Origin: an uncultured Actinomycetota bacterium
GTDB lineage: Bacteria > Actinomycetota > Actinomycetes > Mycobacteriales > SCTD01
DNA length: 64,000 bases
Direction of reading: 5' to 3'
NCBI GenBank assembly: GCA_963761695.1
Contig: CAVXIB010000010.1
Location: 69,559 to 133,558, forward strand
The notes under the pieces were generated by a model. The model worked only from the letters and a program-made list of their open reading frames with translations, searched no databases and was not told where the DNA came from. Positions 42,212 to 60,709 of this stretch are shown one piece after another; position 1 is the first letter of the stretch, and each line of letters begins with the position of its first letter. The position numbers and the translations under genes are program-made.

Positions 42212-43926
42212 CGCCCGTGACCGCTGTCGCCGCAGGCGGACCGACCACCCGGTCCCTGCGCCTGGGCCTTCTCGTCCTGGGCCTGTCCCTGCTCCTGCTG
42301 GCCTTCCTCGACCTGGTGCTCCTGTCGTCGTCGGAGAACGCGCCGTTCCACGTCCTGGCGCTGTTCGTCGTCGAGGGCGTGCTGTGGTGCACCACCGGCC
42401 TGATCGCCTGGAGCCGCCGCCCCAGCAACCGGACCGGCCTGCTGCTGGTCGGCGGGGGCTGCGCCTTCCTGGTGTCCGCCCTCGGCAACGTCCCGCAGCG
42501 CCCGATCGCGGCCGTCGGCGCCCTGCTCGCCAGCCTCCCCCTCGCCCTGAACGTGCACCTGCTGATGGCGTTCCCGTCCGGGCGGCTGCGCGGCCGCGGC
42601 ATCCTCGCCCTCGTCGTCGTGATCTACGTCCTGGCCGGGCTCGGGCCGCTGCCCCAGCGGCTGTTCACCCCGGGCGGCCCGGCCTTCATCGCCGACCTGC
42701 CGGGTCTGGCCCAGGTCAGCGAGACCGCGGCACGTCTGGGACGCGTCGTGTCGATCGGGGTCGCCGCCGTGCTGCTCGCTCGCCTGCGGGGGACGCCCCC
42801 CGCGCAGCGGCGCACCCTCGGACCGCTGTACCTCTACGGCGCCGTCGCCCTGGTGGCCGTGAGCTTCGCCGCGCAGCTGCAGGAGGCGGCCGGGATCTCG
42901 ACCGACCTCCGTTTCAGCCTGCAGGTGGCCGCCCTGGCCGTCATCCCGGTGGCCTTCACCGCCGTGCTGCTGCGTGGGGGGTTCGCCCGCGCCGGCGCCG
43001 TCGAGGAGATGAGCCTGCTCCTGAGCAACGAGCAGGCTCCGACGCAGGACGTGCTCGCCGCCGTGCTGGGCGACAGCTCCCTGACCCTGCTGCACTGGTT
43101 GCCCGACGAGCAGACCTGGGTCGACGGCGACGGGCAGCTGTGCGACCTGCCGCGCGCGGACGCCCGGCACGGCGTGGTCGAGGTGACCGCCGGCCCGCGC
43201 CTGCTGGGGGCGATCACCTACGACGCCCTCCTGCTCCCCGACGCCGATCTGGTGCGCCTCGCCGCCCGCCCGGCCGGGCTGGCCCTGGAGGCCGAGCGTC
43301 TGTCGGTGGAGCTGCGCCGGTCGCGCGCCCGCCTGGTGGCCACGGCCGACGACGAGCGACGGAGGCTGGCCGGCAACCTGCACGACGGACTGCAGGTGCG
43401 GCTGGTCCTGCTGGCCCTGCAGGCCGGCACCCTGGCCGCGTCGGCGACCGACCCCACGACCGCCCAGGCCTTCGCCGACCTGCGCCGTGAGGCCGACGAG
43501 GCGGCAGCCGAGCTGCGCCGGACGGTGCACGCGCTCCTCCCGGCGGCCCTGGTCGAGCGGGGGCTCGCGCCGGCGGTGGAGGACCTCGTCGACCGGCTCC
43601 CCCTGCGGTCCAGCCTGGTGGTCAGGCAGGTGCCCGGCGACCTGCGGGTCGACGTGGTGACCGCCGCCTGGTACGTCGTCACCGAGTCGGTCAGCAACGC
43701 CCTCAAGCACGCCGACGCGTCCCGGCTCGACGTGGAGCTCGGCACGGCCGACGGCCGGCTGGTGGTCATCGTCGACGACGACGGCGCCGGGGGCGCCACG
43801 CTCGTCGGGGGAACGGGCCTGCGCGGACTGGTCGACCGGCTCGACGTCGTCGGAGGACTGCTCCATCTCGACAGCCCGCTCGGCCGCGGGACCCGGGTGC
43901 GGGCCGAGATCCCGTGCCCCGCCTGA
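42208..43926 (+). CDS. Membrane sensor histidine kinase (HisKA_3 / NarL-type)
   Basis: GTGA overlap with collagen-like gene 2. Multi-TM N-terminal half, H-box [14 protein letters not shown], and ATPase motifs ([31 protein letters not shown]). Confidence 0.85.
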
Positions 43927-44570
43927 TGCGGCTGGTCGTCGCCGAGGACGAGGCCCTGCTGCGCCGTGGCCTGGTGCTGATGCTGGAGCAGGCCGGCCAC
44001 ACGGTCGTGGGTGAGGCCGCCGACGCCGAGGAGCTTGTCCGCCTGGTGGACGCCGAACTGCCGGACCTGCTCGTCACCGACATCCGGATGCCCCCTCGCG
44101 GCTCCGACGACGGCCTGCTGGCAGCTCTGGAGGTCCGGGCCCGCCATCCCGCCCTCGGTGTGCTCGTGCTCTCGCAGCACGTGCAGCGCAGCTACGCCCA
44201 GGAGCTGCTCCGGCACTGCCCCGACGCCGTCGGCTACCTGCTCAAGCAGCGGATCTCCGACGTCACGCAGTTCCTGGCCGACCTGCAGGCGGTGGGCGAC
44301 GGCGCCATCGTGCTCGACCCGGACGTCGTGGACGTGGCGATGGCGCGGGCCCGGGCCGAGGCCGCGGGGGTGGACCGGCTGACCGAGCGGCAGCGCGAGG
44401 TGCTGGGGCTGATGGCCCAGGGCCGCAGCAATGCGGCGATCGCCCGCAGCCTGTTCGTGTCCGAAAAGGCCGTGGTGGTGCACGCCTCCAACATCTACGC
44501 CGCGCTCGACCTCCCGCCGAGCGGTGACGACCACCGGCGGGTGCTCGCCGTCCTGCAGCTGCTCGGCTGA
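43926..44570 (+). CDS. LuxR/NarL-family response regulator
   Basis: The REC domain ([13 protein letters not shown]...DLLVTDIRMP) is followed by a LuxR HTH (LTERQREVLGLMAQGRSNAAIARSLFVSEKAVVVHASNIY). The start overlaps the kinase stop by 1 nt (TGATG). Confidence 0.9.
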   Translation: MRLVVAEDEALLRRGLVLMLEQAGHTVVGEAADAEELVRLVDAELPDLLVTDIRMPPRGSDDGLLAALEVRARHPALGVLVLSQHVQRSYAQELLRHCPDAVGYLLKQRISDVTQFLADLQAVGDGAIVLDPDVVDVAMARARAEAAGVDRLTERQREVLGLMAQGRSNAAIARSLFVSEKAVVVHASNIYAALDLPPSGDDHRRVLAVLQLLG

Positions 44571-44577
44571 CGCCCGG

Positions 44578-45504
44578 TCAGCCGACCGCGAGCTCCTGCA
44601 GAAGGGAGGCGTAGTCGCCCTCCGCACGGTCGGCGGCCATCTGGTCGTCGTCGGCGCGCAGCGAGGCCACGAGGACCCGCCACAGCGCATCGGAGTGCCG
44701 GTCGACGGCCAGGCCCCGCCGTGCGGCGCGCACGGCCGGCCCGGTCTGCCCGCGCCGATAGCGCAGCACCGCAAGCTCGTGCGAGGCGCCCGCCATCCGC
44801 TGCCGCCACTGCTCGCGGGGCTCGACCACCCACTCGGCCGGCCCCTCCTCCTCCAGGAGGTCGCCGGCGTACAGGTCGAGCGCCGACTCGTAGGCGGCGT
44901 CGACCTCGCGGGACGGTGCATGGCGGGCCTGCTCCAGCGACCGTTCGGCGAGCGCGATGTCGGTCACCACCACCTCGGGCAGGAGCCGGTAGGCCGCCCC
45001 GTCCCGGACGAGCGCTCCGGCCGCGGGGGTCATCGCCAGGACTCCGCGCAGGGACGACAGCGTGGTGAGCATCGACCGGGCGGCCGAGGCCTGGTCGGCT
45101 CTCGGGCCACAGAGCGGACAGCAGGACCTCGCGGTGAAGGGGTCGGCCGCCCTGCAGCGCGAGCAGCCGCAGGACGCTGCGCGCCCGCGGGCGCAGACTG
45201 CCCAGAGGGAGGGGTCGGCCCCGGCGGACAGCGAGAAGGAGCCGAAGCAGGCTGCCCGGGCAGGGGTGTCCCGGCTCGGGACGTCTGCCCGGGTCGCCGC
45301 CCCGTGCCGGCAGGCGAGAGCGACGGCAGCACGACGGAGGTCGTCGGCGGCGACGCCGTCACCATCCCGGTCGGCCTCCGCAGCCTCGATCCGGAGCGCC
45401 TCCAGCAGGGCCTGCACCTCCCGGACGGCGCCGGACGGCTGCTGCGGCAGGGCCCGGAGCGCCACGACACAGGACGTCGCCGGTGTTCGGCTGCCGATCT
45501 CCAT
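44578..45504 (-). CDS. BTAD-domain (SARP/AfsR-like) putative transcriptional regulator
   Basis: The C-terminal half resembles a bacterial transcriptional activation domain (VVVTDIALAERSLEQA...YESALDLYAGDLLEEE...EWVVEPREQWRQR...LAVDRHSDALWRVLV). The N-terminal winged-helix part is degenerate and Cys-rich, and may also be frame-damaged. Confidence 0.5.
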   Translation of the reverse strand: MEIGSRTPATSCVVALRALPQQPSGAVREVQALLEALRIEAAEADRDGDGVAADDLRRAAVALACRHGAATRADVPSRDTPARAACFGSFSLSAGADPSLWAVCARGRAASCGCSRCRAADPFTARSCCPLCGPRADQASAARSMLTTLSSLRGVLAMTPAAGALVRDGAAYRLLPEVVVTDIALAERSLEQARHAPSREVDAAYESALDLYAGDLLEEEGPAEWVVEPREQWRQRMAGASHELAVLRYRRGQTGPAVRAARRGLAVDRHSDALWRVLVASLRADDDQMAADRAEGDYASLLQELAVG

Positions 45505-46964: not shown

Positions 46965-47113
46965 GGCCCCAGCCTGGACCGGTCGCGGCCGGGTGTTGAG
47001 GTCGGGCGGGTGCCCGTTGGGGCAGACCCGGATGCCCGTTGTGCCGGTGTTGACCGTCGGGCGGTTCAGTGCCGCTGACCCGTTCGGGTCAGTGGTCGAA
47101 GGAGGTGGACCGG

Positions 47114-47764
47114 ATGTCCGTGCCCGTGCCGTCCGTGGTGGTCGAGCTCGTCCGGGTCGTGGTGCTCGCCGACGACCCCGTGTCACGCAGCGGCGTCGTC
47201 GCCGGGTTGCGCGAGGTGCGCACGCTGCACGTGGTCGACGACCGCGAGGCCGCGCGCGCCGACGTCGTCGTGTGCATCGCCGACGACCCGGTGCGCGCCG
47301 CGCTGCTGGTCCGGCAGGTCCTCGCGAGTGGCGCCCGCCGCGCGGTCGCCGTGGTCGGGGCGCTCGACGACGCCGCGCTGCTGACCCTCGTCGAGGCGGG
47401 CGCGTGCGGACTGCTGCGCCGCAGCGACGCGACCCCGGAGGCCCTTGCCCACGCCGTCCGCACAGCCGACGACGGCGACGGCACCCTCCCGCCGGACCTG
47501 CTCGGCCGCCTGCTCGAGCACGTGCAGCGGCTCGGCCGCGACGTGCTCGCACCGCGGGGGCTGACGTCGTCGGGCCTCACGTCGCGGGAGACGCAGGTGC
47601 TGCAGCTGCTCGCCGACGGCGAGGACACCCATGGCGTCGCCCGGCAGCTGGCCTACAGCGAGCGGACCGTGAAGTCGGTCGTCCACGACCTCACCAGCCG
47701 CCTGGGTGTGCGCAACCGGACGCAGGCGGTGGCGCATGCGCTGCGGCACGGCCTCATCTCGTGA
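47114..47764 (+). CDS. LuxR-family regulator (REC-like N-domain + LuxR HTH), first gene of the CIS locus
   Basis: ATG 47114 follows GAAGGAGG. C-terminal LTSRETQVLQLLADGEDTHGVARQLAYSERTVKSVVHDL. Confidence 0.8.
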   Translation: MSVPVPSVVVELVRVVVLADDPVSRSGVVAGLREVRTLHVVDDREAARADVVVCIADDPVRAALLVRQVLASGARRAVAVVGALDDAALLTLVEAGACGLLRRSDATPEALAHAVRTADDGDGTLPPDLLGRLLEHVQRLGRDVLAPRGLTSSGLTSRETQVLQLLADGEDTHGVARQLAYSERTVKSVVHDLTSRLGVRNRTQAVAHALRHGLIS

Positions 47765-48378
47765 TCGGGGCCGTCGACGAAGCGCTGCGGCGGGCCGTGC
47801 GGGAGGCGGTGCCGGACGGCGCCGTCGCTGTCAGTTTCGAGGCACCGACCAAGGACTGGGCCGCCCGCCGGAACGGACCGGCGGTGGACCTGTACCTGTA
47901 CGACGTGCACGAGGTCGTCGCCCGGCGCCACGCCGGACGGGTGCCGCTGCGTGAGGACGGCCGCGTGGTGGGTGTCCGGTCGCCGCAACGCTGGTACGCC
48001 CTGTCCTACCTGCTCACCTGCTGGACGTCGCGGCCGGAGGACGAGCACGCGCTCCTGTCGGCCTGCCTCGTCGGGCTCCTCCGCCACGAGTCGCTGCCGC
48101 CCGCGTGGCTGGACAGCGGTGGCGTCGCCCTGGACCAGGCCTGCCAGCTGCAGGTGGCGCAGCCGCCGCCGACCGACCGCAAGTCGCCCGACCTGTGGTC
48201 CGCGCTCGGCGGTGAGCTCAAGCCGTCCCTGCACCTCGAAGTCGTCGTCGCGCTGGACGCAGGTCGCACCACGGCGCTCGCCCTCCCGGTGACGCAGCCC
48301 CCCGTGCTGCAGACGGACTCCCGCACCCCTGGGATCGGTGGCAGCGAGAGCAGGTCGGGGCGTCAGCGGGTCGGCTGA
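47761..48378 (+). CDS. DUF4255 (Pvc16/Afp16 N-terminal type) protein, putative tail terminator/cap
   Basis: GTGA overlap with the LuxR gene. VSFEAPTKDW...AVDLYLYDVHE...WYALSYLLTCW is the usual DUF4255 pattern. Confidence 0.7.
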   Translation: MIGAVDEALRRAVREAVPDGAVAVSFEAPTKDWAARRNGPAVDLYLYDVHEVVARRHAGRVPLREDGRVVGVRSPQRWYALSYLLTCWTSRPEDEHALLSACLVGLLRHESLPPAWLDSGGVALDQACQLQVAQPPPTDRKSPDLWSALGGELKPSLHLEVVVALDAGRTTALALPVTQPPVLQTDSRTPGIGGSESRSGRQRVG

Positions 48379-48383
48379 GGCGG

Positions 48384-50355
48384 TCACGTCGAGGCGAGCT
48401 GCCCGCTCCAGGCGGCGAAGTCGGCAGGCGCGGTCAGCCGTCCGAGCTTGCGGTACTCCTGCTGGACGGCCCGCACCAGGTCCAGCGTCGTCAGCGTCCG
48501 CCGGGCTGCCGCGGTCACCGTCACCGCTGTGACGGCGACGTTCCGGATCTCCCCTCCGGACAGGTCGAAGCGGGCCAGCGCGTCGAGGTCCAGGTCGGGG
48601 TCGCGGGGAACGAGCCGGCCGAGGCATGCGGCGAACAGCGCCCGTCGGGCCACGGCGTCAGGCCGGGGGAAGTCGACGATCACGTCGATGCGGCGGGCGA
48701 ACGCCTCGTCCAGGTTGCTCCGTAGGTTGGTGGCCAGCACGGCAAGGCCGTCGAAGTCCTCCAGGCGTTGCAGCAGATAGGCGACCCCCAGGTTCGCGTG
48801 CCGGTCCTTGGCCTCGCTGACCTGCCCGCGGCGACCGAACAGCGCGTCGGCCTCGTCGAAGAACAGCACGCCGTTGACGCCCGCGGCCTGCGTGAAGATC
48901 CGCTCGAGGTTCTTCTCGGTCTCGCCGACGTACTTGTCGACGACGGTCGACAGGTCGACGGCGTACACGTCGACGCCGAGCTCGTGCGCCAGCACCTCGA
49001 CCGCCAACGTCTTGCCGGTGCCGGGCGGGCCGCCGAACAGCGCGGTGACGCCCCGGGAGATCGACGAGGGCCCGCCCACGCCGTAGGCCCGCAGGGCATC
49101 CCGGTGCCGGAAGCGGGCCACCAGCTCGGCCAGCAGGCGTCGCGGTTCGTCGGGCAGGACCAGGTCGTCGGGACCGGCCTGGGGCCGGATGCGTCGCGCC
49201 AGCCGTTCCAGGCCCGACCCGTTCTGCCGCTGCGCACCACGCACGAGCGCGTCGTAGGACACCGGGACGCCGTCGGCAGCGGCGGCGAGCGCTGCGGCGG
49301 ACACGGCGCGCACGACCTGGACACTGCCCAGGCGCAGGTGGGCCAGGCGGACGGCCAGGGCCGGCGCCTCGGGCACGCCCCCCTGCTCGAGGGCCTGCTG
49401 CCAGAGCAGCTCCCTGCTGTCCCCTCCGCGGCTCGTGACGTCGACCTCCACCGGCACCTGCGAGGTCCAGGCCGGGTCCCACGGGCGTGCGCCGTGCAGA
49501 ACCACGGGCCAGCCTGAGCGGGCGAGCAGCCGCAGCGCCGGCACCACCTGCTCGACGGGGACGTCGTCGACCGGACCCACCACCAGTCCCCGGGCGGTGA
49601 GCTGCGCGTCACGCAGCGCGGTGCGCACCAGGTCGGTGACATCGGCTGCCGGAAGCACCAGGGCGAGGTCCAGCACGAACGGCGAGCCCATCACGGGACC
49701 GAGCGCCGCCTGAGCGCGTGAGGGCGCGAGACCCCCGGCGCGCTCACGCAGGTAGGTGAGGCGGGCGCCCGCGTCGAAGGCGCAACGCAGCCGGTCCGCC
49801 TCCTCGCACGGCACGGCCGGGACCTCGACGAGCACGTCGGCCAGTGCGGGGTCGTGGCCGGTACCCCCCAGAAGCGCGTCCAGGACCGTGGGCGGGACCG
49901 TCCACGGTCGACGCAGCATCGGTCCACTGCCGCGGGCGCTCCAGCAGGCCCTCCACCAGGAGCGCACCGTCGTCGCCGAGGTCGGCACGGGCCGACGCCT
50001 CCCACGCCGGGACGTCGGCCAGGCACAGCACGAGCTCTGCGGTCGCGTGCCGCAGGTCCGGCTGGCCGGCCAGCGCGGCGTAGAGGTCGCCGAACCGCGC
50101 GTCGAGGTCCGGGGCGGCGGCGACCAGAAGGGCCGTCACCTGCAGCTCGGACAGTCCGAAGACGGCCTGCACCTCGCGCAGCCGGACGCGCCCGCCCCCC
50201 GCCTGCGCCTCGTCCGCCCGGCACTCCGCAGCGGCCATCAGCGCGGTGGCCTCCTGGGGGACGGCCGCGCCGTCGATCAGGGACACGAGCTGCGCCTCGA
50301 GGGCGGCCATCCGGCCGAGGACGTACGCGGCCGACGGGTCGAGCGGGGCCGACAC
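48384..50355 (-). pseudogene. CIS-associated AAA+ ATPase (Afp15/Pvc15-like), one extra base as sequenced (GGG at 49934-49936)
   Basis: The C-terminal AAA module has Walker A GPPGTGKT and Walker B VLFFDEADAL. The N-terminal 140 aa (GTG 50355) are in another frame. Deleting one base joins ...LLVEGLLER to RGSGPMLRRPWTVPPTVLDALLGG. Length is 1972 nt. Confidence 0.8.
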
Positions 50356-50358
50356 GGG

Positions 50359-50811
50359 TCAGGCGCCCTCGGCGGCCGCGACGGCGTCGGCGGGGGAGGC
50401 GGTCCCCGCGACGACGGCCGCCACCGCGGGCAGGTACATGGCGGCCGTGGTCAGGGCGTCGCGGACGAGCCGGGCCAGGAGCGGACCGGTCGGCTGCTGC
50501 AGCTGCAGGTCCAGGCTCGCTCTCGTGCGCACCTCGCCGTCATCGAGGTCCAGCTCGACCGTGACGCCGAGCAGACCCCAGTTGGCCCGGGCGGCGACCT
50601 GCGCGACGTCGGCCCGCCGGGCCTGCGGCACGACGTCGTCCGCGACCGCGTAGACGAGCAGCGCCTCGTCCTCCTCGTCCACGACGACGGCGACGTGGAG
50701 CACCTCGTCGCCGACCTCGAACGCCCCGCGCAGGACACCCGCCTCCGGGTCGCGCTCGAGGTCGAGGTCCGCACTGGTCAGCAGGTCGGCGACCTCGTCG
50801 AACCGGCTCAT
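50359..50811 (-). CDS. YbjN-like (type III secretion chaperone-fold) protein
   Basis: A 150-aa acidic protein (...FEVGDEVLHVAVVVDEEDEALLVYAVADDVV...ANWGLLGVTVELDLDDGEV...). It lies 3 nt upstream of the ATPase gene. Confidence 0.55.
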   Translation of the reverse strand: MSRFDEVADLLTSADLDLERDPEAGVLRGAFEVGDEVLHVAVVVDEEDEALLVYAVADDVVPQARRADVAQVAARANWGLLGVTVELDLDDGEVRTRASLDLQLQQPTGPLLARLVRDALTTAAMYLPAVAAVVAGTASPADAVAAAEGA

Positions 50812-50824
50812 GCCGGCACTCCGG

Positions 50825-52567
50825 TCACGCCCGTACCGGCTTGCGCTTCATCAGTCCGGCGCCGACCAGCGCCTCCTCCAGCCGCTGCTCCCGGTCCGCC
50901 TGGTCGCCGGGGTTGCGGCGCTTCGGCCGTCTCGGCGCAGGTCCGGCGACGACGGGCGCCGCGGCCGGCACGACGGGGGCGGGAGGCGGGTCGGCAGGCA
51001 GCGCCAGGGGGGTGAGCTTGTGGCTCGCTCCGCTCCTGGCCATGTCCTGGAACTCGGCCGCCTTCTTGAGGTAGCCACCGTGTGCGGTGTCTGCTGTGGC
51101 GTCGGCGTAGGCGGCGTCGTCCCAGTCCGTGACCAGCTTGCCGTCCTTCTTCAGGCCCTTGACGTGCTTCTTGACATGCTGGAAGCGCCGGACGGCGTCC
51201 TTCACCGTGGCGTCGTCGAGCCGCGCCGGATCGTCGGCGCGACCTTGGACCACCTTGCGGTACTGCTTGCTCCGCATCCCCAGCAACCGTTCGGCGGTAC
51301 CCGCGTCGACCTGCTGGGGCAGGCCGAAGTAGCTGTCCCGCTCCTCGTTGAGCTCCTTGGGGTCGTACCGCCCGCCCTGCCCGGCGAACCGGCGGTCGAA
51401 CGCCTGGTCGTTGTCGATGCCCCTGGCCCTGCCGGTCTTGGTGTTGATCATGATGTTACCGCCGTGCCGGTCGCTCTGGCCGGTGATGGCGTCCTGCAGC
51501 TGCAGGTCAGCCAGCGACTTCTGCGTGGCAGGGTTCTTGAAGTCGTGCTCCAGGACGTGCTCGCTCCCCTTCCACATCAGCGTGCCGTCGACCCGCTTGA
51601 CGGTGCCCTCCGGGTACATCCACTCCTCGCCCTCGGCGATCGGCGTGTCGTAGTTGCCCTGCACCAGGGGTGCGTGTCCGGCGCCGAGGTCCGCCGATAC
51701 CGAACCCTTCTCCGTGCCGTGCACGGCGAACTCCTCGCGCGCGAGCTGACGAAAGCCCAGCGCGCGGTCGACGCGGGAGGACGCCACAGCCCGGGCCGAG
51801 TTGCCCTCCTGGCTGAACGCCGACTGACCATCGGGCTTGAAGTAGCCCTTCCGGCTCCCGCCGGCGATCCGGCTCTTGTAGGCCACCTTGTGCACAGGGT
51901 TGACCGAGCCTCCGTCACCGCGCTGCATCGAGACCAGGTCCGCGGAGGTCTTCCCCCACTTCTCACCGTCGGTGGTGTCGTCCGACTCGGGGGTCGGAAG
52001 CGGTGTCGGTGCGGGCGGTAACGGCTGGGCCTGGGCGGGGGAACCCTTCCTCCCGGCCTTGCGCTTGATCCAGTCCAACGGACCCAGCTGGAGCGCGGCG
52101 GCCGGTGCCGCGCTCACGGCGATCTCCCCCCCGCTCACCGCCCGCGCCTCGGCTGCGCCTGCCTCGCGCTCGGACGCGTCGTGCGTGGCGCTCACCGCCC
52201 TGGCGGCGGCACTCCCGCCACGGTTCTGCAGCACGTGGGTGACCTCGTGAGCGACCTCGTGCAGGGCGGGCTGGTCGTTGCCGAAGACGACCGTGTCCTG
52301 CAGCGTCGCGGCACCCGCACCGATCCGGACCATCTCGTCCCGGGCTCCGGTGCGCACGGTCACGTCCGACAGGTCCGCGCCGAACGAGCGCTCGAGCCTC
52401 GCGCGGAACGGCAGCGTCGAGGGCCGGCCCAGGCGCTGCAGCGCCGCGGTGCCACCGGCCACCAGCGTTCGGGCCGCCCGCTCCGGGGCCGACACTTCGG
52501 TCTGCCGGTCTGCAGGCGTTGTCCGCCGGGATGGCGCTTCGTGGTCGTGCTGGACCTGCTGCTGCAC
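50825..52567 (-). CDS. DUF4157 (HExxH) domain fused to a PI3/PI4-kinase-like catalytic domain; candidate CIS cargo/effector
   Basis: GTG 52567 lies 6 nt after GGGGGAGG. The DUF4157 part is LPFRARLERSFGADLSDVTVRTG...HEVAHEVTHVLQ. The kinase-like part has KGYFKPDG, GQSDRHGGNIMIN and GIDNDQAF (DRHxxN catalytic loop plus IDND in the DFG position). G+C is lower than in the neighbouring genes. Confidence 0.65.
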   Translation of the reverse strand: MQQQVQHDHEAPSRRTTPADRQTEVSAPERAARTLVAGGTAALQRLGRPSTLPFRARLERSFGADLSDVTVRTGARDEMVRIGAGAATLQDTVVFGNDQPALHEVAHEVTHVLQNRGGSAAARAVSATHDASEREAGAAEARAVSGGEIAVSAAPAAALQLGPLDWIKRKAGRKGSPAQAQPLPPAPTPLPTPESDDTTDGEKWGKTSADLVSMQRGDGGSVNPVHKVAYKSRIAGGSRKGYFKPDGQSAFSQEGNSARAVASSRVDRALGFRQLAREEFAVHGTEKGSVSADLGAGHAPLVQGNYDTPIAEGEEWMYPEGTVKRVDGTLMWKGSEHVLEHDFKNPATQKSLADLQLQDAITGQSDRHGGNIMINTKTGRARGIDNDQAFDRRFAGQGGRYDPKELNEERDSYFGLPQQVDAGTAERLLGMRSKQYRKVVQGRADDPARLDDATVKDAVRRFQHVKKHVKGLKKDGKLVTDWDDAAYADATADTAHGGYLKKAAEFQDMARSGASHKLTPLALPADPPPAPVVPAAAPVVAGPAPRRPKRRNPGDQADREQRLEEALVGAGLMKRKPVRA

Positions 52568-52833
52568 GGCAGACCTCCCCCTCGTGTTGAGCTGCGAGCC
52601 TCCCACTGCCGAGCCCCTCCGGCTCCTGCCTCTTGGGGCGGTACGGGTGGCGCACCTCCGCGACGCCGTCGTCCAGCTGGGCCGGTCAACGGTGTCCTCG
52701 CTCGCCACCCCCAACGAGGCGCACTGCCCCGACGGGCAGGTCCGACCGCCCCTTCCGACGCACCGCCGGTCGTGCGCCCGGGCCGTCCCCCTCGACAGTC
52801 TGGGCGCACACCAGACATCCCGAGGGGGCCGCA

Positions 52834-54387
52834 ATGCCGCAGTACCTGTCGCCGGGCGTGTTCGTCGAGGAGCTGCCGCCCGCAGCCCGGCCGATCGAGG
52901 GCGTCAGCACCTCGGTCGCCGCCTTCGTGGGCCTGGCGGCCTCCGGACCGTTCGACACGCCCGTGCTCGTCACCAACTGGACCCAGTTCTGCAAGAGCTT
53001 CGGCGACTTCGTCGAGGGCAGCTACCTGGCGCACGCCGTCTACGGCTTCTTCACCAACGGCGGGTCCACCTGCTACGTGGTCCGCGTCGGGGCGGCGGCC
53101 GCGAAGGCCGAGCCCGCGGAGCTGCCGCCGGCCGCCGCCGAGCTCAACGGCACCGACAAGACGCCGGCCTACACGGTCCGAGCCCTGGCGGCGGGCGCCG
53201 AGGGCAGCACGCTCAGCGTCGACGTCAACCCGGCACCGGCGACCGAGGGCGGCGACGAGACCTACACCGTCGTCGTGCGTCGCGGCACCGAGGCCGTGGA
53301 GACCTTCGAGGGCCTCACGACCAAGCGCGGCAGGACCAACGTCGCGACCACGGTCAACGCCCAGTCCAAGCTGATCAAGATCGAAGAGGTCGCCAAGGCC
53401 GGGACGATCGAGAAGCTCGCTCCCGGCAGCACCGCCCTGGCGGCCCCCGCCTCGGCGCTGATCCCCGCGCAGGCTGCGGTCGGCCCGGACGACTACGTCG
53501 GCTCGGCCGCGAACCGCACCGGCTTCGGCGTCCTCGAGACGCTCGAGGACGTCACCATGGTCGCGGTCCCGGACCTGGTCGCCGCGCTGCAGCAGGGAGC
53601 CATCGACCTCGAGGGCTTCAAGGCCGTGCAGCTCGGGATCATCAACCACTGCGAGCTCATGGGCGACCGGATGGCCATCCTGGACCCGCCCCCCGGGCTC
53701 GGCGCGCAGCAGGTCAAGGACTGGCGGACCGACGTCGCCGGCTACGACAGCAAGTACGCGGCGCTCTACTGGCCGCAGGTCAAGGTCTTCGACCCGCTGT
53801 CCGGTCGCAACGTCTTCATCCCGCCGTCGGGCCACCTCGCGGGCATGTGGAGCCGCAGCGACGCCGAGCGCGGCGTGCACAAGGCTCCCGCCAACGAGGT
53901 GCTCCGCGGCGTCGTCGACGTCGAGGCGACCCTCACCCGCGGCGAGCACGACCAGCTCAACCCGATCGGCGTCAACGTCATCAAGTCCTTCCCGGGCCGC
54001 GGCATCCGCGTCTGGGGCGCCCGCACCCTGTCGAGCGACCCGGGCTGGCGCTACATCAACGTCCGTCGCCTGTTCTCCTTCGTCGAGGACTCGCTGCTGG
54101 GTTCCATGGACTGGGTCGTGTTCGAGCCGAACGACCGCGACCTGTGGGCCCGCATCTCGCGCGAGGTCAACGCGTTCCTCTACCGCCTCTGGCAGTCCGG
54201 CGCCCTGTTCGGGAACTCCCCGGACGAGGCGTACTACGTGCGCTGCAACGACGAGACGAACCCCTCCGAGAACATCGAGGCGGGTCTGGTGACCACCGAG
54301 ATCGGCCTGGCCGCGGTCAAGCCGGCCGAGTTCGTCGTCTTCCGCCTGGCCAGCCTGCCGACCGGCACGGCGTCGGTCTCCGAGTGA
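52834..54387 (+). CDS. Contractile tail sheath protein
   Basis: MPQYLSPGVFVEE...STSVAAFVG at the N-terminus and NPIGVNVIKSFPGRGIRVWGARTL in the C-terminal sheath domain. 517 aa. Confidence 0.95.
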   Translation: MPQYLSPGVFVEELPPAARPIEGVSTSVAAFVGLAASGPFDTPVLVTNWTQFCKSFGDFVEGSYLAHAVYGFFTNGGSTCYVVRVGAAAAKAEPAELPPAAAELNGTDKTPAYTVRALAAGAEGSTLSVDVNPAPATEGGDETYTVVVRRGTEAVETFEGLTTKRGRTNVATTVNAQSKLIKIEEVAKAGTIEKLAPGSTALAAPASALIPAQAAVGPDDYVGSAANRTGFGVLETLEDVTMVAVPDLVAALQQGAIDLEGFKAVQLGIINHCELMGDRMAILDPPPGLGAQQVKDWRTDVAGYDSKYAALYWPQVKVFDPLSGRNVFIPPSGHLAGMWSRSDAERGVHKAPANEVLRGVVDVEATLTRGEHDQLNPIGVNVIKSFPGRGIRVWGARTLSSDPGWRYINVRRLFSFVEDSLLGSMDWVVFEPNDRDLWARISREVNAFLYRLWQSGALFGNSPDEAYYVRCNDETNPSENIEAGLVTTEIGLAAVKPAEFVVFRLASLPTGTASVSE

Positions 54388-54415: not shown

Positions 54416-54895
54416 ATGACCACGCCCGCCGTCGGGATGAACCCGACCCAGAACGTCGCCGTCACCACCTGGTACCTCGACGCGAGCGGCACGTCGCTCG
54501 CGGCCTTCAAGACGATCTCCGGCATCAGCCTGGAGCTCAACGTCGTGGAGATGCAGCACACGATCAAGGGCGGCAAGACGTCCATCATGAAGTCGGTCAA
54601 CGCCGGCGGTGTGAAGCCCGGGAAGCTCACCTGCACCCGCGGCCTGATCCTCGACGACTCCATGTGGACCTGGATCCAGGACGCCATCGACGGCAACATG
54701 GCCAAGGCCCGCAAGAACATCACCATCATCCTGTACAACGCGGACGGCAGCGAGAGCAAGCGGTACGAGTTCCGCAACGCGTTCCCGTCCGGATGGTCGC
54801 TCGGTGACCTCGACGCGGCTGGCACCGACGCCCTCATGGAGACCCTCACGATCGAGCACGAGGGCTTCAGCCTCAAGGGCAAGAACGGCTTCTAG
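54416..54895 (+). CDS. Tail tube protein (T4 gp19 / Afp1-like)
   Basis: A 159-aa protein directly after the sheath gene. WYLDASG...FKTISGISLELNVVEM...YEFRNAFPSGWSLGDLDA is the tube-family pattern. Confidence 0.9.
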   Translation: MTTPAVGMNPTQNVAVTTWYLDASGTSLAAFKTISGISLELNVVEMQHTIKGGKTSIMKSVNAGGVKPGKLTCTRGLILDDSMWTWIQDAIDGNMAKARKNITIILYNADGSESKRYEFRNAFPSGWSLGDLDAAGTDALMETLTIEHEGFSLKGKNGF

Positions 54896-55360: not shown

Positions 55361-55527
55361 CGTACGCGGCCGACCGCCTGCTCGAGGAGGTCGCGTACGT
55401 CGCCTACCACTTCCACTGGCCTCTGGCGGACATCCTCGACCTCGAGCACCCGCTGCGTCAGCAGTTCATCCAGCACATCGGTCGACTGAACGGCGCCGCG
55501 GGAGGTGAGCAGGGGTGGGACGGCTGA
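55357..55527 (+). CDS. DUF6760-like small protein in the -1 frame, no canonical start codon (CTG start or -1 frameshift extension of 54902-55360)
   Basis: The translation LTYAADRLLEEVAYVAYHFHWPLADILDLEHPLRQQFIQHIGRLNG... matches the small conserved CIS protein that normally begins MTY... There is no ATG/GTG/TTG in this frame in the 24 codons upstream. The GGGGGGG run at 55348-55354 is in X_XXY_YYZ phase. Confidence 0.5.
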   Translation: MTYAADRLLEEVAYVAYHFHWPLADILDLEHPLRQQFIQHIGRLNGAAGGEQGWDG

Positions 55528-58500
55528 GGGACGCCCTGCGTGGTCGTTCGACGTCGGTGCTGCTCGCCGGCGCGGGGTCACAGGCAGCGCTCCCGTCCGT
55601 GCCGGGCGAGGCCGGGAGCGCCGTCCCGCCGGCGGTCCTGACGACCGCCGCTCCGCGCGCACGGCAGGCCTCGGTGCGCGCGGCCTGGCGCGACGCCGCA
55701 CCCCTCGTCCCCCTGCTCGCGCAGCCCCTGGCCTGGGAGGCGGGCGCCGGGTTCACGCGCTCGCTCGCCACCGCGCCGCACCCTGCCGCGTGCTCTGGCC
55801 CCGCTCGGCCACGAGCTGCGCCAGGATGCCCCGCGCGGTCTGCTCGTCGGCGTCGCGAGGTCGCACGCGCCGGGCCTGGTCCCCGACGCGCTGCCCCTGC
55901 CGCGTCAGCGTGCAGGCCTCGACGGCGACACTGCACCCCGCGACACCGCATTCGGCGACACCGCATTCGGCGACACCGTGCCGACCAGCGTCGCGCCGCC
56001 CGCACCTGCCCGCACCGGCGACCGGCTGCTGCGCCGGGTCCGGCAGCGGCGGGCGACGCCGTCACCGACCGACGTCGTGCCTGCCGCCCCCGGCCGGGAC
56101 GAGCGGGCGCCCGTCGCCGCACCGGAGAGCCGCGCCGTCGCGCCTGCAGCAGCAGCCCTCGACGCACCCGCGGGCGAGGCGGTGCCGGCGCTGCCGCAGC
56201 CGTGGGCTGCCCGTCGCCTGTCCCTCACCCGTTCCACTGCCGGTGCTACTGCCGGTGCCGCTGCCACTGCTATGGCCGGTGCTACTGCCGCTGCCGCTGC
56301 CGCTGCCGCTGCCGGTGCCACTGCCGGTGCCGGTGCCGGTGCCGGTGCCGGACCGACGGTGCCCGTCGGCCGCGTGACGCTGCCGACGGCCCGCCGCCTG
56401 CCCAGCGTCGCGGCCGAGCTGCCCCGGGTCGGCGGGCCGGCCGACGTGGCGGGACCGCGCCGCGCGAGCGGACCCGCGAGCCCGCTCGGCCCGGGCCTAC
56501 CTCTCCCGGTCGCACCGCTGCTGCCCTCACCGGAAGGGACCCCCGCCGACAGCCGCACGGCCCCGGCCGAGGCGACCACGGCGCCACCGCAGCCGGCCCC
56601 GGCAGCCGGCCCGACGGCGCCACCCGTGGAGCGCGGGGCGCCGCCGCGCGCAGGTCGTGGTCCCGAGTCTGCGACCCCCGCCGTCCCGTCGCCCCTTCCT
56701 CCTGCCGTCGAGACCCCTCGTCGACCGGGTCCGGGGCGCAGTCGGCTGGGGGCACCCCTGCGCGGAGCGACGCCGCCGTCACCTGCACCTGCGACTGCGG
56801 CTGCGGCTGCCTGCTCCTGCCCCTGACGCCGACGCCTACGGCGACGGCAGACCCGCAGACCGCCGCCACGAATGGCCCCTCGACGGTGGCGCACCAGGTC
56901 CCCACCCGGACACCAGCTGCCCCCGACCCGGCCACGCTGCCGCAGCGCCCTCCGGGCGAGGGACCTCCCCCCGCCGAGGCGGTACCGGTTCCGTCCGGCA
57001 CGCATCCGCCGCCGACGCCGACGCCGACGTCCTCCAGCAGCATCTCGCCGGTCGAGCGGTCCCCGCTCGCACCGGCCCGCGGCGTCTCCGGACCCGTCAC
57101 TGCCGACGAGGCACACCCCACGTCACTGATGACAGCACCGCCGGTCGAGCCCGGGCACGAGGGGCTGCTGCCGCTGGCTGCGTCGACCCCCCTGACGCCT
57201 GCTGGCCTCACCGTCCCGCACGAGGTCGGGCCGCCCTCCGCGGACGGGCTGGTCGACCTGCCGCCGGCCCGCGGCGCACGTGCGGGCTCGCCGGAGGCCC
57301 TCCCGGGAGGGCCTGGCGCGTCGGGAACATCCGTCCCGTCCTCGCTCCCCGGAGCGGGCCCGACCGCCATGCCGGTCGGCCCGGCCGTCGGCCTGCCGCC
57401 GTCCGCCTCGGCACGTCCCACCCCTGGAGGTGCCGACCCTGCAGGTCCTGCCGCCACCCGTCCCGACCCTGCAGGTCCCGTCCTGCCCCTCACGGGAGCC
57501 GGCCCGACCGCACCGGCCGCTCCGCCGTTGTCGACGCCCGTCCCGCAGCTGCCCGTCGGCGAGGGGGATCCGCCGCCGGCCGCCGCCGGCCCGCTGACCC
57601 AGCGGGCGGCCACCCCCCCAGCGCAGCCTGACGAGCCTGGACCCCGACCGCTGTCGCCGACGTCCCCCGCCGCCCTGCCGCTGACGTCCGCCACGCCGCT
57701 GACCGTGACCGACCTGACCTCCCGTCGTCTGTCCGGCCCCGCGTCCGTCCCGGCCGGGCCCCCGTCCGCGCTCCTCCCGAGCCCCGCGCTCCTCCCGAGC
57801 CCCGCGGTCCTCCCGAGCCCCGCGGTCACCCGCGCGCCCCATGCCCCCGTGCCCGATTCCTCCGTGCCCCCGCCCGCCCCGCTGTCCGGCGACGGCGGCG
57901 CGCGCCCGACCACGATCCCCGACCTCACCCGTGCCTCGAGCACCGGCCCGTCGGCCCCGACCTTCGACCGGCATGAGGCCGGGTCCGGGCCGAAGGACCG
58001 TTCCGGCGTGCCCGCGCAGCAGCCGCTCGAGCAGTCGCTCGTGACGCGGCGCCCCGCCCCGGCAGCCCCGGCCTCCCCGGTGACGCGCCCGTCGACCACC
58101 CCCGACGCCGGGCCTCCCGCGCCCCCCGCCGGCGCCCCCGAGCCGGTCTCCGCGGACGGGGCCACCGAGCCGCCCGCCACCGCGCGGCCCCTGGTGGGGG
58201 CCGAGCGCACGTCCACCCTGCCCTCGGACATGGACGCGGGCCACCCTGTTCCCGGGGCCGGTCCCGCGGCACTCGTCCCGGCCGACCTGGTGCCCCTCGT
58301 GCTTCGCCGACCCGGCCAGCAGGGCGACCAGCCCCCGGCACCGGGGCCGCTGCCCGCCGACGCCGGGGGCATCTCACGCGGAGCAGCCGACCGGCCGATG
58401 GCCGCCCCAGGCACGCCGCCCGTTCGCACGCCCGTGACCGCTCCTGCCGCGTCCGCGACGCCGGTGGCGCCGTCCGTCCAGCCGGGGCCGGTGAGCATGC

Positions 58501-60158
58501 CGAGCCTGCTGCCGACCGTCGGCGTGACACCCGCCTCGGTCCTGCGGCCACCGACCGACGTCCCGCCGGCAGCACCGGCCCAGCCCGGGAGTCGGCCGGT
58601 CGGCCAGCTGCCGTCCTCGCGCGCTGCGGTCAGTGCCGCCCTGCCGCACGCGCCGCAGCCGCCCCTGACCGACCGCGCCGCCGCACGCGAACCGGACTCC
58701 CGACCGCAGGCCCCACCGCCGCAGCCCGCCCGCGCCCTCGACGACGTCGCGCCCGGCGAGCCCGCCACGAGCCGACGGGCGACGGCACTCCCCTCGCCGG
58801 TCGACGGTGTCCGCCCGCTCGTCGGCACCCGTGAGGTAGCAGCACCACGGAGCGGCGAAGAGGTGGTCCCGTCGGACCGCAGCGCCGCGACGACGTCGGC
58901 CCAGCCCCTCCCGGGAGCAGCCGCGGCGCCGGGCGCCCACCACGACCTGGCGGGAGCCACCGACGCTCCCCGACCGGCAGCCGCCCGACCCTCGGCGCCT
59001 GCCCTGCAGGCTCCCGGCGCCCGCAACGACAACGACAACGGCACGTCTGCGGTCGCCGCACCGACTGCGCGTCCACTCGCCGGGCGGCCCCGGACGCGCC
59101 TCGGCGCACCCCTCACCGAGGCCGGCGCGCGCCCGTCGCCCTCGTCCGACCCTGCCCACCCCCGGACCCTCCTGCCGCCGACCGGCCAGGGAGCGCTCCC
59201 TGCAGACGCCGACCAGGCGGCCCGCCCGGTGTCGACCGTCCCGAACCGGGACGACGCCGTCCGGTCCCCCACCGCCCTGCAGCCCGCCCGGGCAGGAGTG
59301 CCCTACGAGGTGCGCCCCTCCAGCCTGGCAGGGCCCACGCAGGACCCTGGCTCCGGGCCGGCCGCCGAGCAGCGGGCCGTCGAGCGGGCGGTCCAGACGG
59401 TGGAGCGGCGCACCGGCCGGCCGCTGCCCCCGGTGCTGCTGGACCGGAGCACGGCGAGCGCTGCGGCCCTGCGCCCGGCGTCCGCCCTCGCCGCCGCCAC
59501 CGGTCAGCGGGTCGTGCTCCCCCTCGCGGCCGGCCCGCTCACCGGTCCACGCGCCGCCGGGCTGCTCGCCCACGAGCTCACGCACCTCGCGCAGCAGGCG
59601 GCCGGGCGCCTGGAGGCGACCCCGGAACAGGACGAGCAGCAGGCCCGGTCGGCCGAGGCTGCCGCCGGGGGTCGGCCGGCGACTCGCGTGCTCACCGCCA
59701 CCCGTCCGGCGGCGGACCGCAGCCCTGCGCCTACTCCTGCCCTGCCGCACCAGCAGGGACGTGAGACGGAGCACGAGGGCGGTGACGCCGGATCACCGGT
59801 GCGCCGCGCCGCGGCCGTCGCTGCCCAGCTGGAGCGGGCGACGCGCGCACCGGCACCAGCCGCAACCCGTGCACCAGCACCCGCACCAGCACCCGCACCA
59901 GCACCCGCACCCGCACCTGCACCCGCACCCGCACCCGCGGCCGCGCCCGTGCAGCTCGCCGAGTCCGACACCTCCCGGCGACCGGCCGCGCCGTCCTCAC
60001 CGGCACCAGCCGCGCCGGTCGACCCCCTGGCCGCCCTCACTCCCGCCTCCCTCGACCACCTCGCGGCCCGCCTCTACGGACGACTGCGCAGCCAGCTCCG
60101 CAGCGAGCTGCTCGCCGACCGCGACCGCACCTCCGACCTCGCCGACCTGTGGACCTGA
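55515..60158 (+). CDS. Giant Pro/Ala-rich protein with internal DUF4157 (HExxH) domain in the tape-measure position; middle ~1 kb reads better in another frame
   Basis: GTG 55515 follows GGAGG. The DUF4157-like core is ...VERRTGRPLPPVLLDRS...GQRVVLPL...LLAHELTHLAQQ. The conserved-looking C-terminus is LDHLAARLYGRLRSQLRSELLADRDRTSDLADLW. Between about 55780 and 56810, frame +1 has higher GC3 and natural sequence. Confidence 0.65.
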   Translation: MGRLRDALRGRSTSVLLAGAGSQAALPSVPGEAGSAVPPAVLTTAAPRARQASVRAAWRDAAPLVPLLAQPLAWEAGAGFTRSLATAPHPAACSGPARPRAAPGCPARSARRRREVARAGPGPRRAAPAASACRPRRRHCTPRHRIRRHRIRRHRADQRRAARTCPHRRPAAAPGPAAAGDAVTDRRRACRPRPGRAGARRRTGEPRRRACSSSPRRTRGRGGAGAAAAVGCPSPVPHPFHCRCYCRCRCHCYGRCYCRCRCRCRCRCHCRCRCRCRCRTDGARRPRDAADGPPPAQRRGRAAPGRRAGRRGGTAPRERTREPARPGPTSPGRTAAALTGRDPRRQPHGPGRGDHGATAAGPGSRPDGATRGARGAAARRSWSRVCDPRRPVAPSSCRRDPSSTGSGAQSAGGTPARSDAAVTCTCDCGCGCLLLPLTPTPTATADPQTAATNGPSTVAHQVPTRTPAAPDPATLPQRPPGEGPPPAEAVPVPSGTHPPPTPTPTSSSSISPVERSPLAPARGVSGPVTADEAHPTSLMTAPPVEPGHEGLLPLAASTPLTPAGLTVPHEVGPPSADGLVDLPPARGARAGSPEALPGGPGASGTSVPSSLPGAGPTAMPVGPAVGLPPSASARPTPGGADPAGPAATRPDPAGPVLPLTGAGPTAPAAPPLSTPVPQLPVGEGDPPPAAAGPLTQRAATPPAQPDEPGPRPLSPTSPAALPLTSATPLTVTDLTSRRLSGPASVPAGPPSALLPSPALLPSPAVLPSPAVTRAPHAPVPDSSVPPPAPLSGDGGARPTTIPDLTRASSTGPSAPTFDRHEAGSGPKDRSGVPAQQPLEQSLVTRRPAPAAPASPVTRPSTTPDAGPPAPPAGAPEPVSADGATEPPATARPLVGAERTSTLPSDMDAGHPVPGAGPAALVPADLVPLVLRRPGQQGDQPPAPGPLPADAGGISRGAADRPMAAPGTPPVRTPVTAPAASATPVAPSVQPGPVSMPSLLPTVGVTPASVLRPPTDVPPAAPAQPGSRPVGQLPSSRAAVSAALPHAPQPPLTDRAAAREPDSRPQAPPPQPARALDDVAPGEPATSRRATALPSPVDGVRPLVGTREVAAPRSGEEVVPSDRSAATTSAQPLPGAAAAPGAHHDLAGATDAPRPAAARPSAPALQAPGARNDNDNGTSAVAAPTARPLAGRPRTRLGAPLTEAGARPSPSSDPAHPRTLLPPTGQGALPADADQAARPVSTVPNRDDAVRSPTALQPARAGVPYEVRPSSLAGPTQDPGSGPAAEQRAVERAVQTVERRTGRPLPPVLLDRSTASAAALRPASALAAATGQRVVLPLAAGPLTGPRAAGLLAHELTHLAQQAAGRLEATPEQDEQQARSAEAAAGGRPATRVLTATRPAADRSPAPTPALPHQQGRETEHEGGDAGSPVRRAAAVAAQLERATRAPAPAATRAPAPAPAPAPAPAPAPAPAPAPAAAPVQLAESDTSRRPAAPSSPAPAAPVDPLAALTPASLDHLAARLYGRLRSQLRSELLADRDRTSDLADLWT

Positions 60159-60159
60159 C

Positions 60160-60708
60160 ATGACGATGCCCCAGCAGCGCCCCGCTCCCCCGCCCCCGCC
60201 GCGCCCCACGCTGCCCGCGCCCAAGCCCTTCGGCCGCTACACCAGCGTCCCGCGCCCGACGTCGAGCGACGCGGCCCCGCGGCACATGACGGGCTTCTGG
60301 GTGGTCGTCGACGGCGTCTCCCTGCCGACCTTCACCGAGTGCACCGGCCTGGCCGCCGAGTACGGGGTCGAGCCATGGACCGAGGGCGGCCAGAACGAGT
60401 TCATCCACCAGCTCCCGGGACGGATCTCCTACACACCGGTGAGCCTCACCCGCTACGTCGACGGTGCGAGCGGCGGGCTGGCCGCCTGGTTCAGCAGCGT
60501 CGCCGACATCAGCCAGAAGTACCGCACGGCGCGCATCAGCGCCGTCGACGCCGCCGGCGACCCGGTCGCGCACTGGGACCTCACCGACGTCTTCCCGTCG
60601 AAGTACACCGGGCCCAGCTTCACCGTCGGCGGGACGACCGCCGCCTCCGAGACGCTCGACCTCGTCCACCACGGGTTCGTCTTCGCCTACGACGCGCCGA
60701 GGGGCTGA
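60160..60708 (+). CDS. Second tail tube family protein (gp19/Afp5-like) with Pro-rich N-terminal extension
   Basis: FWVVVDGVSLPTFTECTGLAAEYGVEPWTEGGQNEFIHQLPGRISYTPVSLTRY...HWDLTDVFPSKYTGPSF. An alternative start is the internal ATG before TGFWVVV. Confidence 0.85.
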   Translation: MTMPQQRPAPPPPPRPTLPAPKPFGRYTSVPRPTSSDAAPRHMTGFWVVVDGVSLPTFTECTGLAAEYGVEPWTEGGQNEFIHQLPGRISYTPVSLTRYVDGASGGLAAWFSSVADISQKYRTARISAVDAAGDPVAHWDLTDVFPSKYTGPSFTVGGTTAASETLDLVHHGFVFAYDAPRG

Positions 60709-60709
60709 G

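Follow-up and report, generated by a model that had tools for sequence, protein, structure and literature searches.

The known cargo of extracellular contractile injection systems (eCISs) comprises nucleases, deaminases, ADP-ribosyltransferases, peptidases, and pore formers, and to our knowledge there is no kinase among those that have been characterised by experiment. We analysed a gene in a stretch of 64,000 nucleotides (hereafter the window) from an uncultured Actinomycetota bacterium, corresponding to positions 69,559 to 133,558 of contig CAVXIB010000010.1. The gene lies in a contractile injection system (CIS) locus and encodes a 580-aa protein in which a DUF4157 module is followed by a domain of the PI3K/PI4K-like kinase fold, and the protein is probably an undescribed kinase-type cargo of this phage-tail-like injection machine.

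DUF4157 is an established marker of eCIS toxins (PMC8213781, PMC11297309). Kinases have been linked to related machines before. Francisella OpiA is a phosphatidylinositol 3-kinase delivered by a type VI secretion system (T6SS) (PMC7641602, PMC8208517), and a Tox-Peptide Kinase domain, found behind the PVC-metallopeptidase in Firmicutes, was predicted to be a toxin using the PVC/eCIS route (Zhang et al. 2012 Table 1, PMC3482391). The latter is akin to the Ser/Thr kinases of lantibiotic synthetases and is described by the motifs DxH, YKP[KR], DxHxEN, and DxE (PMC3482391). In view of these two cases, the statement in the original prediction, which had been made from the DNA letters, that no CIS cargo of this kind had been described was too strong. 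Within the main text and the supplementary tables covered for PMC8213781 and PMC11297309, no PI3_PI4-kinase toxin appeared, and the literature searched held no paper combining DUF4157 with phosphatidylinositol. In Streptomyces coelicolor, the genes for Sco4256-4258 lie in the stretch flanked by the ATPase gene (sco4259) and the sheath gene (sco4253); Sco4256 was detected in purified particles by mass spectrometry, and deletion of Sco4256-4258 empties the tube lumen (PMC10066040, PMC10020575).

The 580-aa gene model starting from the GTG at 52567 was preferred because it agrees with the public protein P0006 at every residue except the initiator, because of the spacing of the Shine-Dalgarno-like GGGGGAGG, and because the in-frame extension (52568-52834) has a G+C content of 0.58, 0.80, and 0.85 at codon positions 1, 2, and 3 (GC1, GC2, and GC3), which is unlike coding sequence (the G+C content of the window is 75.6%). 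A 669-aa open reading frame (ORF) from the TTG at 52834 was rejected on codon-position G+C, ribosome-binding site, and public gene model. The N-terminal part of the protein matched PF13699 with 52.4-52.7 bits (gathering cutoff 22; E = 5e-14). The zincin motif HEVTHVLQ is intact, and EREA follows approximately 20 residues further on (residues 132-135); the two fit HExxHxxQ-E, the defining signature of the PVC-metallopeptidase (PMC3482391). The leader in front of this module may act as a CIS loading signal, by analogy with work on eCIS signal peptides (PMC11297309). On the other side of the module, the first 9 residues of the segment modelled next to the linker were disordered in AlphaFold2, and the C-terminal tail showed no conservation among the relatives.

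The fold of the C-terminal region was predicted by AlphaFold2 with a 58-sequence alignment (A2), and the model reached a predicted local distance difference test score (pLDDT) of 90.2 and a predicted TM-score (pTM) of 0.89; a model from 5 sequences was poor (pLDDT 51). When the model was compared with the PDB by Foldseek, 128 matches were obtained at E <= 1e-3, and the best 50 of the 128 were all kinases of one fold class. The top match was Helicobacter pylori CtkA (3akk, E = 4e-6), and the others included human PI4KII alpha and beta, PI3K p110 isoforms, VPS34, ATM, and SMG1. The highest TM-score, 0.49, was that to PI4KII alpha, and the bilobal PI3K/PI4K-like fold was evident. Since the TM-score is below 0.5, the match holds at the superfamily level. 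Identity to any characterised kinase was only 10-16%.

The Foldseek viral library also returned matches, including proteins annotated as PI3K/PI4K catalytic domains. In this library the fold formed part of long proteins with several domains from tailed phages, actinophages among them. Their annotations are portal, head-morphogenesis, or ADP-ribosyltransferase protein, and they include a 1,340-aa protein of Mycobacterium phage Onyinye and a 1,479-aa protein of Gordonia phage GodonK. The likeness is one of fold only, and tblastn against phages gave no sequence match. PI3K/PI4K-like modules may, judging from these models, also occur in virion-associated phage proteins.

The catalytic residues were strongly conserved. 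In the alignment of 80 relatives (A3), which is independent of A2, K244, D359, D366, R367, N371, and D385 were invariant, and H368 and D387 were conserved in at least 90%. The same positions emerged from A2, in which (domain numbering) D165, R173, N177, I190, D191, and D193 were invariant, and K50, D172, and H174 were at least 90% conserved. Furthermore, DRHxxN was present in 148 of 151 relatives, most of which (approximately 125) carried [IVL]D[NH]x about 18 residues further on, and GIDND was near-universal across the genome loci described below. Because they are conserved in the family alignments, the motifs KGYFKPDG, DRHxxN, and GIDNDQAF are not due to chance. A family profile searched against the PDB aligned with the catalytic loops of Tel1, SMG1, TOR, DNA-PKcs, PI4KA, and Fam20 only, at marginal E values of 0.009-1, and the alignment to Tel1 and SMG1 was gap-free from DRHxxN to the ID of the DFG position. 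No match was found by phmmer with the single C-terminal domain against the PDB (E <= 10), by NCBIfam or PADLOC for the kinase protein or the YbjN-like protein encoded next to it, or by tblastn against plasmids. We assign the domain to an unnamed bacterial family in the PI3K/PI4K-like branch; its catalytic set is complete, and kinase activity is predicted. Thus far the original prediction fared well: the DUF4157 pattern at the N terminus, the kinase motifs KGYFKPDG, GQSDRHGGNIMIN, and GIDNDQAF at the places where it had put them, and the kinase fold that it had proposed to check by AlphaFold and Foldseek were all borne out.

A kinase fold does not always carry kinase chemistry. SelO and SidJ have kinase folds with AMPylation, glutamylation, or similar chemistry, and the domain studied here might likewise be such an enzyme or a pseudokinase scaffold. 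Its low identity to characterised kinases would fit this idea, as would the helix-C region, in which neither alignment showed an invariant acidic residue, and the weak side matches to Fam20-type kinases and pseudokinases. However, the lysine, the DRH, the asparagine, and the aspartate at the DFG position are invariant across thousands of diverged relatives, and the spacing of the catalytic loop is that of the phosphatidylinositol 3-kinase-related kinases (PIKKs), a pattern expected of an active conventional kinase. A different chemistry was therefore considered very unlikely.

The best Foldseek match, CtkA, is a HipA-like protein kinase, and the small YbjN-like gene lies 13 nt downstream of the kinase gene. 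The two genes could thus form a stand-alone pair resembling a toxin-antitoxin system, in which a HipA/CtkA-type Ser/Thr kinase and a YbjN-like antidote act in the producer independently of any particle. In a second, unrelated CIS locus, L126 (7650-9035, + strand), a different DUF4157 toxin likewise has a YbjN gene behind it; this toxin is a 1,199-aa DUF4157 protein with a weak MLD match. Nevertheless, YbjN was found beside the kinase gene in none of the other approximately 80 loci, and the PI3_PI4_kinase model matched 52 of 80 relatives (E <= 1e-3) whereas HipA Pfam models matched neither this protein nor any of the 80. No HipA, APH, or Pkinase model competed with PI3_PI4_kinase in this set. 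Moreover, a stand-alone pair would leave the DUF4157 fusion and the repeated CIS adjacency unexplained, and its probability appears to us as low as that of a non-kinase chemistry. YbjN as a conserved partner of the kinase was rejected, being present only here and in L126, in the latter beside a different DUF4157 toxin. The YbjN-like protein may instead be a chaperone or an immunity factor for DUF4157 cargo; no paper tying YbjN to contractile injection systems was found in the literature searched.

To determine the extent of the family, 1.84 billion cluster representatives (50% identity) were searched exhaustively with a HMMER profile. There were 3,506 matches at E <= 1e-3; at the stricter thresholds of E <= 1e-10 and E <= 1e-30, 1,467 and 290 remained, respectively. 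A word-indexed homologue search returned 4 relatives, and a second one with A2 returned 10 proteins. Genome loci were scanned with alignment A1, A2 being too diverse for the scan. Two sets were used, namely 80 longer family representatives for Pfam and 80 species-level loci for the genome context. An N-terminal eCIS_core domain was carried by 32 of the 80 longer representatives (approximately 40%). DUF4157 and the kinase were joined in one ORF in 14 of the 80 genome loci, from Chloroflexota, Bacteroidota, Cyanobacteria, Myxococcota, Actinomycetota, and Paenibacillus/Cohnella. In 9 of the 80 (L014, L016, L017, L025, L044, L045, L046, L047, and L059), genes for a CIS ATPase, sheath, tube, or Pvc16 lay within 10 kb, and the kinase gene mostly adjoined the CIS AAA+ ATPase gene. 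Another fusion, P0080, sits mid-way in a complete CIS locus. The CIS neighbourhood thus recurs across five phyla or more (Actinomycetota, Chloroflexota, Cyanobacteria, Myxococcota, and Firmicutes). As CIS loci make up a tiny fraction of a genome, this adjacency would, by informal estimate, be far above chance. The effector reading of the original prediction is strengthened by the recurrence of the fusion in many lineages and of the kinase-like gene beside CIS ATPase, sheath, or tube genes in five phyla.

The position beside the AAA+ ATPase can also be read in another way. The protein could be an internal regulator in the producer, which phosphorylates CIS components or regulators and controls assembly, loading, or firing, in analogy to the PpkA threonine-kinase pathway of some T6SSs. 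In favour of such a role, the gene recurs beside the ATPase and not at the distal "toxin end", the locus holds many regulators (GerE, BTAD, and a two-component system), and the family has no obvious immunity gene as a conserved neighbour. However, the kinase is fused to DUF4157, a module tied to variable toxin domains, and many family members are far from any CIS or are multi-kinase giants. Furthermore, the same kinase was sought in close CIS relatives and was found in 0 of 61 metagenomic loci retrieved via the sheath protein (best-segment identity mostly 44-66%), and it is therefore no core regulatory part. A regulatory role was accordingly judged quite unlikely. In these sheath-related loci, other DUF4157-X proteins flank the ATPase, but never this kinase. 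Because other DUF4157-X proteins flank the related ATPases, the arrangement follows the pattern of a constant tag with an exchangeable payload, as in eCIS toxins.

The giant relatives (P0005, P0007, P0010, P0017, and L070, 5759-11278) are 1,200-2,150 aa long and carry two to five tandem kinase-like domains, with no other recognisable Pfam domain. Relatives scoring over the PF00454 (PI3_PI4_kinase) cutoff included P0005 (84.9 bits), L070 (56.1), P0017 (46.2), P0010 (41.3), and L014 (32.4).

The surrounding locus is a genuine CIS, as sheath, tube, VgrG-like, PAAR, gp25, Pvc16_N, and AAA domains and GerE/BTAD regulators were recognised in it, and the kinase gene lies within the cluster, between the sheath gene and the YbjN and AAA ATPase genes. 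The original prediction had placed the gene at the head of an operon with YbjN and the CIS ATPase. The three are indeed co-directional and tightly spaced (gaps of 13 nt and 3 nt), but the reading frame of the ATPase is interrupted. Its WHD lies on the ORF at 49744-50355 and its AAA domain on the ORF at 48384-49988, which overlap in different frames; the relatives' ATPases aligned to one frame over residues 70-178 and to the second over residues 186-696, placing the break at approximately 49922-49942. Similarly, the Afp7-like tube-initiator/LysM gene (59761-61384, + strand) appears split into ORFs 59761-60708 and 60464-61384, which overlap in different frames with a break at approximately 60.69 kb; the two aligned to successive stretches of an ORF that is unbroken in L087 and in L115. 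The two splits are either assembly indels or real decay, and decay would weaken the case for current loading.

These apparent frameshifts raise the question of whether the kinase gene is a relic in a decaying locus, its CIS-linked function lost. The gene itself speaks against such an origin, being full length, with all conserved residues, a strong ribosome-binding site, and a host-like GC3 of 0.90, and two indels per 64 kb at 76% G+C are also expected from assembly errors. We consider a relic highly improbable. The original prediction had further taken the low G+C content of the gene as a sign of recent acquisition. Its counts were exact (75/120 G+C in 51061-51180 and 49/60 in 49021-49080); the acquisition did not hold. 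The GC1, GC2, and GC3 of the kinase domain were 0.67, 0.46, and 0.915, respectively. The dip reflects amino-acid composition, since it falls on the first two codon positions and GC3 remains about 0.9. The tube gene (64% G+C) and the sheath gene (71%), with a GC3 of 0.97, dip equally or more deeply. Recent horizontal acquisition was therefore rejected, given the GC3 of 0.90-0.92 across the gene and the like dip in sheath and tube.

Taken together, we favour the reading that the gene encodes a modular cargo, that is, an effector, of the surrounding CIS, and hold it with somewhat better than even confidence on the basis of sequence and models. In the proposed mechanism, the leader and DUF4157 would be the constant part, which marks the protein for CIS particles with the help of the Pvc15-type AAA+ ATPase, and the YbjN-like protein might assist as a chaperone or provide immunity. 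The DUF4157 module might cut the protein and thereby free the C terminus. The variable part would be the 330-residue bilobal PI3K/PI4K/HipA-like kinase, in which K244 is predicted to bind ATP, D366-R367-H368 and N371 to form the catalytic loop, and D385 and D387 to hold the metal. Sheath contraction would free the cargo, and the kinase would then move a phosphate from ATP onto a hydroxyl group of its target.

As for the substrate, it cannot be read from the sequence, and the activation-loop region was variable and uninformative on this point. The IDNxxAF motif and the best TM-scores point to type II PI4K, and the single best E-value is to CtkA, a protein kinase. As a rough split, a phosphoinositide or another lipid head group is our leading candidate, at slightly less than even confidence; serine or threonine of a protein is a tentative second choice, and another small molecule is unlikely.

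Several points weigh against a CIS-delivered kinase. Loading, toxicity, and kinase activity are predictions from sequence and model, and the Foldseek TM-scores are just 0.4-0.5. PF00454 scored 21.2-21.4 bits on this protein, under the cutoff of 27.1, with a match confined to residues 350-392 (profile positions 132-174); the protein itself is no curated member of PI3_PI4_kinase. Approximately 70 of the 80 genome loci had no CIS gene within 10 kb, and most family members lack DUF4157; the kinase-like domain is therefore not CIS-specific. The tape-measure-like protein of the same locus has DUF4157 too, so that the domain is no strict mark of a toxin. The known Streptomyces cargo has a transmembrane segment, which is absent from this protein. 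Finally, the ATPase and Afp7-like genes each look frameshifted, which may mean a defective machine or indel errors in the assembly. Even so, it seems to us unlikely, though not very unlikely, that the truth lies with any of the four rivals, namely regulator, stand-alone pair, other chemistry, or relic.

Features of the kinase gene and its surroundings in the window
Feature	Position	Strand	Basis or remark
Whole gene, 580-aa DUF4157 + kinase-like protein	50825..52567	-	GTG start, TGA stop
Shine-Dalgarno-like GGGGGAGG	52574..52581	-	6 nt 5' of the GTG start
N-terminal leader, residues 1-52	52412..52567	-	Polar, without Pfam match; possible CIS loading signal
DUF4157 / eCIS_core (PVC-metallopeptidase), residues 53-118	52214..52411	-	Pfam PF13699
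Zincin motif HEVTHVLQ (HExxHxxQ), residues 107-114	52226..52249	-	Read from the translation
Ala/Pro-rich linker, residues 119-194, including PLPPAPTPLPTP	51986..52213	-	Composition
PI3K/PI4K/HipA-like kinase-fold domain, residues 195-525 (~330 aa)	50993..51985	-	AlphaFold2, Foldseek, Pfam
K244 in KGYFKPDG, predicted ATP-binding lysine	51836..51838	-	N-lobe beta-strand, model strand 46-51
Catalytic loop D366-R367-H368-G-G-N371	51455..51472	-	Within GQSDRHGGNIMIN, residues 364-376
GIDNDQAF, residues 383-390, predicted metal-binding loop at DFG position (D385, D387)	51398..51421	-	Conservation
C-terminal tail, residues 526-580	50828..50992	-	Pro-rich, then basic (PRRPKRR...KRKPVRA)
Divergent intergenic region, kinase operon / sheath operon	52568..52830	.	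Four GGCGCAC/GTGCGCC heptamers, 52649-52809
YbjN-like gene	50359..50811	-	Pfam YbjN, E = 1.3e-9; candidate chaperone or immunity protein
CIS AAA+ ATPase (Pvc15-like; WHD + AAA)	48384..50355	-	Two frames
Pvc16_N	47761-48378		
GerE regulator	47069-47764		
BTAD protein	44578-45504	-	
Response regulator with GerE	43914-44570		
HisKA_3 histidine kinase	42163-43926		
Sheath	52831-54387		Divergent from the kinase gene
Tube	54416-54895		
Long Pro-rich DUF4157 protein, tape-measure position	55515-60158	+	
CIS_tube + LysM, VgrG-like, PAAR, and gp25 genes			

The regulators form a dense block to the left of the CIS genes (42163-45504 and 47069-47764), and GerE and BTAD are the regulator domains reported to be enriched beside eCIS loci (PMC8213781). 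In the divergent region between the kinase and sheath operons, the heptamer GGCGCAC/GTGCGCC occurs in 4 copies within 161 bp of 263 bp, with 35 copies in the entire window. The Poisson probability of this cluster is approximately 2e-6, or approximately 1e-3 once corrected for the number of windows, and the heptamer is a candidate operator for the neighbouring GerE/BTAD regulators. Scans for promoters and terminators gave nothing useful in this DNA of 76% G+C. The ORF in the tape-measure position is Pro/Ala-rich and has its DUF4157 at residues 1293-1364, near the C terminus and not at the N terminus; the frame plot supported coding only from approximately 56.6 kb, so that the true start is uncertain. 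Tme, a tape-measure-related effector of Streptomyces davawensis, is encoded at the same position (PMC11126660). Further away, an ORF at 40293-40811 (+ strand) matched collagen triple-helix repeats with 26.7 bits against a Pfam cutoff of 27.2; it lies in a stretch of 80-85% G+C (39-42 kb). It may encode a fibre-like protein, or the match may be an artefact of composition.

As cargo, the protein would represent a new payload type among the modular CIS cargo proteins already known. Its family is large and uncharacterised. The present analysis delimits this unnamed family at approximately 3,500 representatives, a sizeable fraction of which is eCIS-tagged, with members beside CIS ATPases in at least five phyla. 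If the kinase cargo is confirmed, phosphorylation would join the chemistry of eCIS effectors, actinobacterial CIS function would gain an enzymatic handle with catalytic residues clear for mutation, and engineered injection systems would gain a new type of natural payload. The substrate, whether a host-like phosphoinositide or a protein, bears on which cells these environmental CISs act upon: those of eukaryotes, those of other bacteria, or the producer's own. The finding would become far more valuable if the protein turned out to be a phosphoinositide kinase that is delivered, or if it accounted for CIS-mediated cell death in actinomycetes. Actinomycete membranes contain phosphatidylinositol, and regulated cell death has been attributed to the cytoplasmic Streptomyces-type CIS. 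We speculate, as a long shot, that domains with DRHxGN and GIDND are widespread injected phosphoinositide kinases and that the enzyme released by the CIS phosphorylates phosphatidylinositol lipids of the producer or its siblings, leading to regulated cell death. If true, that death pathway would have its first enzymatic mechanism, and the enzyme would be the first kinase from a bacterium to act on bacterial phosphatidylinositol.

Compared with OpiA by description, the protein would share the principle of an enzyme of the PI-kinase type from a contractile, phage-tail-derived injection machine. However, OpiA belongs to a membrane-anchored T6SSii, is without a DUF4157 tag, and targets host phagosomes. 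The Tox-Peptide Kinase, as a predicted kinase toxin domain after the same tag, is a computational precedent for kinase cargo. The motifs are different: YFKPD, DRHGGN, and IDND are found here, and the Paenibacillus/Cohnella relatives have DRHxGN and GIDND, the comparison being with the described motifs alone. In addition, the nearest Pfam family of the kinase here is PI3_PI4_kinase. Identity of this family with the Tox-Peptide Kinase of 2012, judged by motif descriptions alone, is unlikely.

Among bacterial kinases, the HipA-like ones have the catalytic-loop motif DxHxKN and differ from the DRH loop found here. CtkA, the top structural match, is a small bacterial kinase that is secreted and falls into the same fold superfamily, at a TM-score of approximately 0.4 and an identity of approximately 10%. 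With the core of type II PI4K and of PI3K/PIKK, the domain shares the bilobal fold (Foldseek E ~1e-5), and, as in PIKKs, DRHxxN is followed by an ID motif 19 residues on. The string QDAITGQSDR...IDNDQAF here resembles LDYIIRNTDR...IDNGLAF of type II PI4K, but the long insertion of type II PI4Ks between the catalytic loop and the IDN motif is missing. The domain further differs from the PI3K/PI4K core in being without helical or C2 accessory domains, in its variable activation loop, and in its distance from that family in both Pfam score and identity.

With regard to position, the kinase gene occupies the same ATPase-to-sheath slot as Sco4256-4258; compared on this basis, those proteins differ in their transmembrane segment and in their C-terminal domains, which are ricin-type or unknown and among which no kinase has been reported. 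The protein also resembles the DUF4157-tagged eCIS-associated toxins, which share the N-terminal HExxHxxQ module, the linker, and a variable C-terminal enzyme, and whose genes likewise neighbour the AAA+ ATPase gene within or alongside a CIS locus (PMC3482391, PMC8213781, PMC11297309). The protein described here differs from them in its C-terminal domain, which is a PI3K/PI4K-like kinase.

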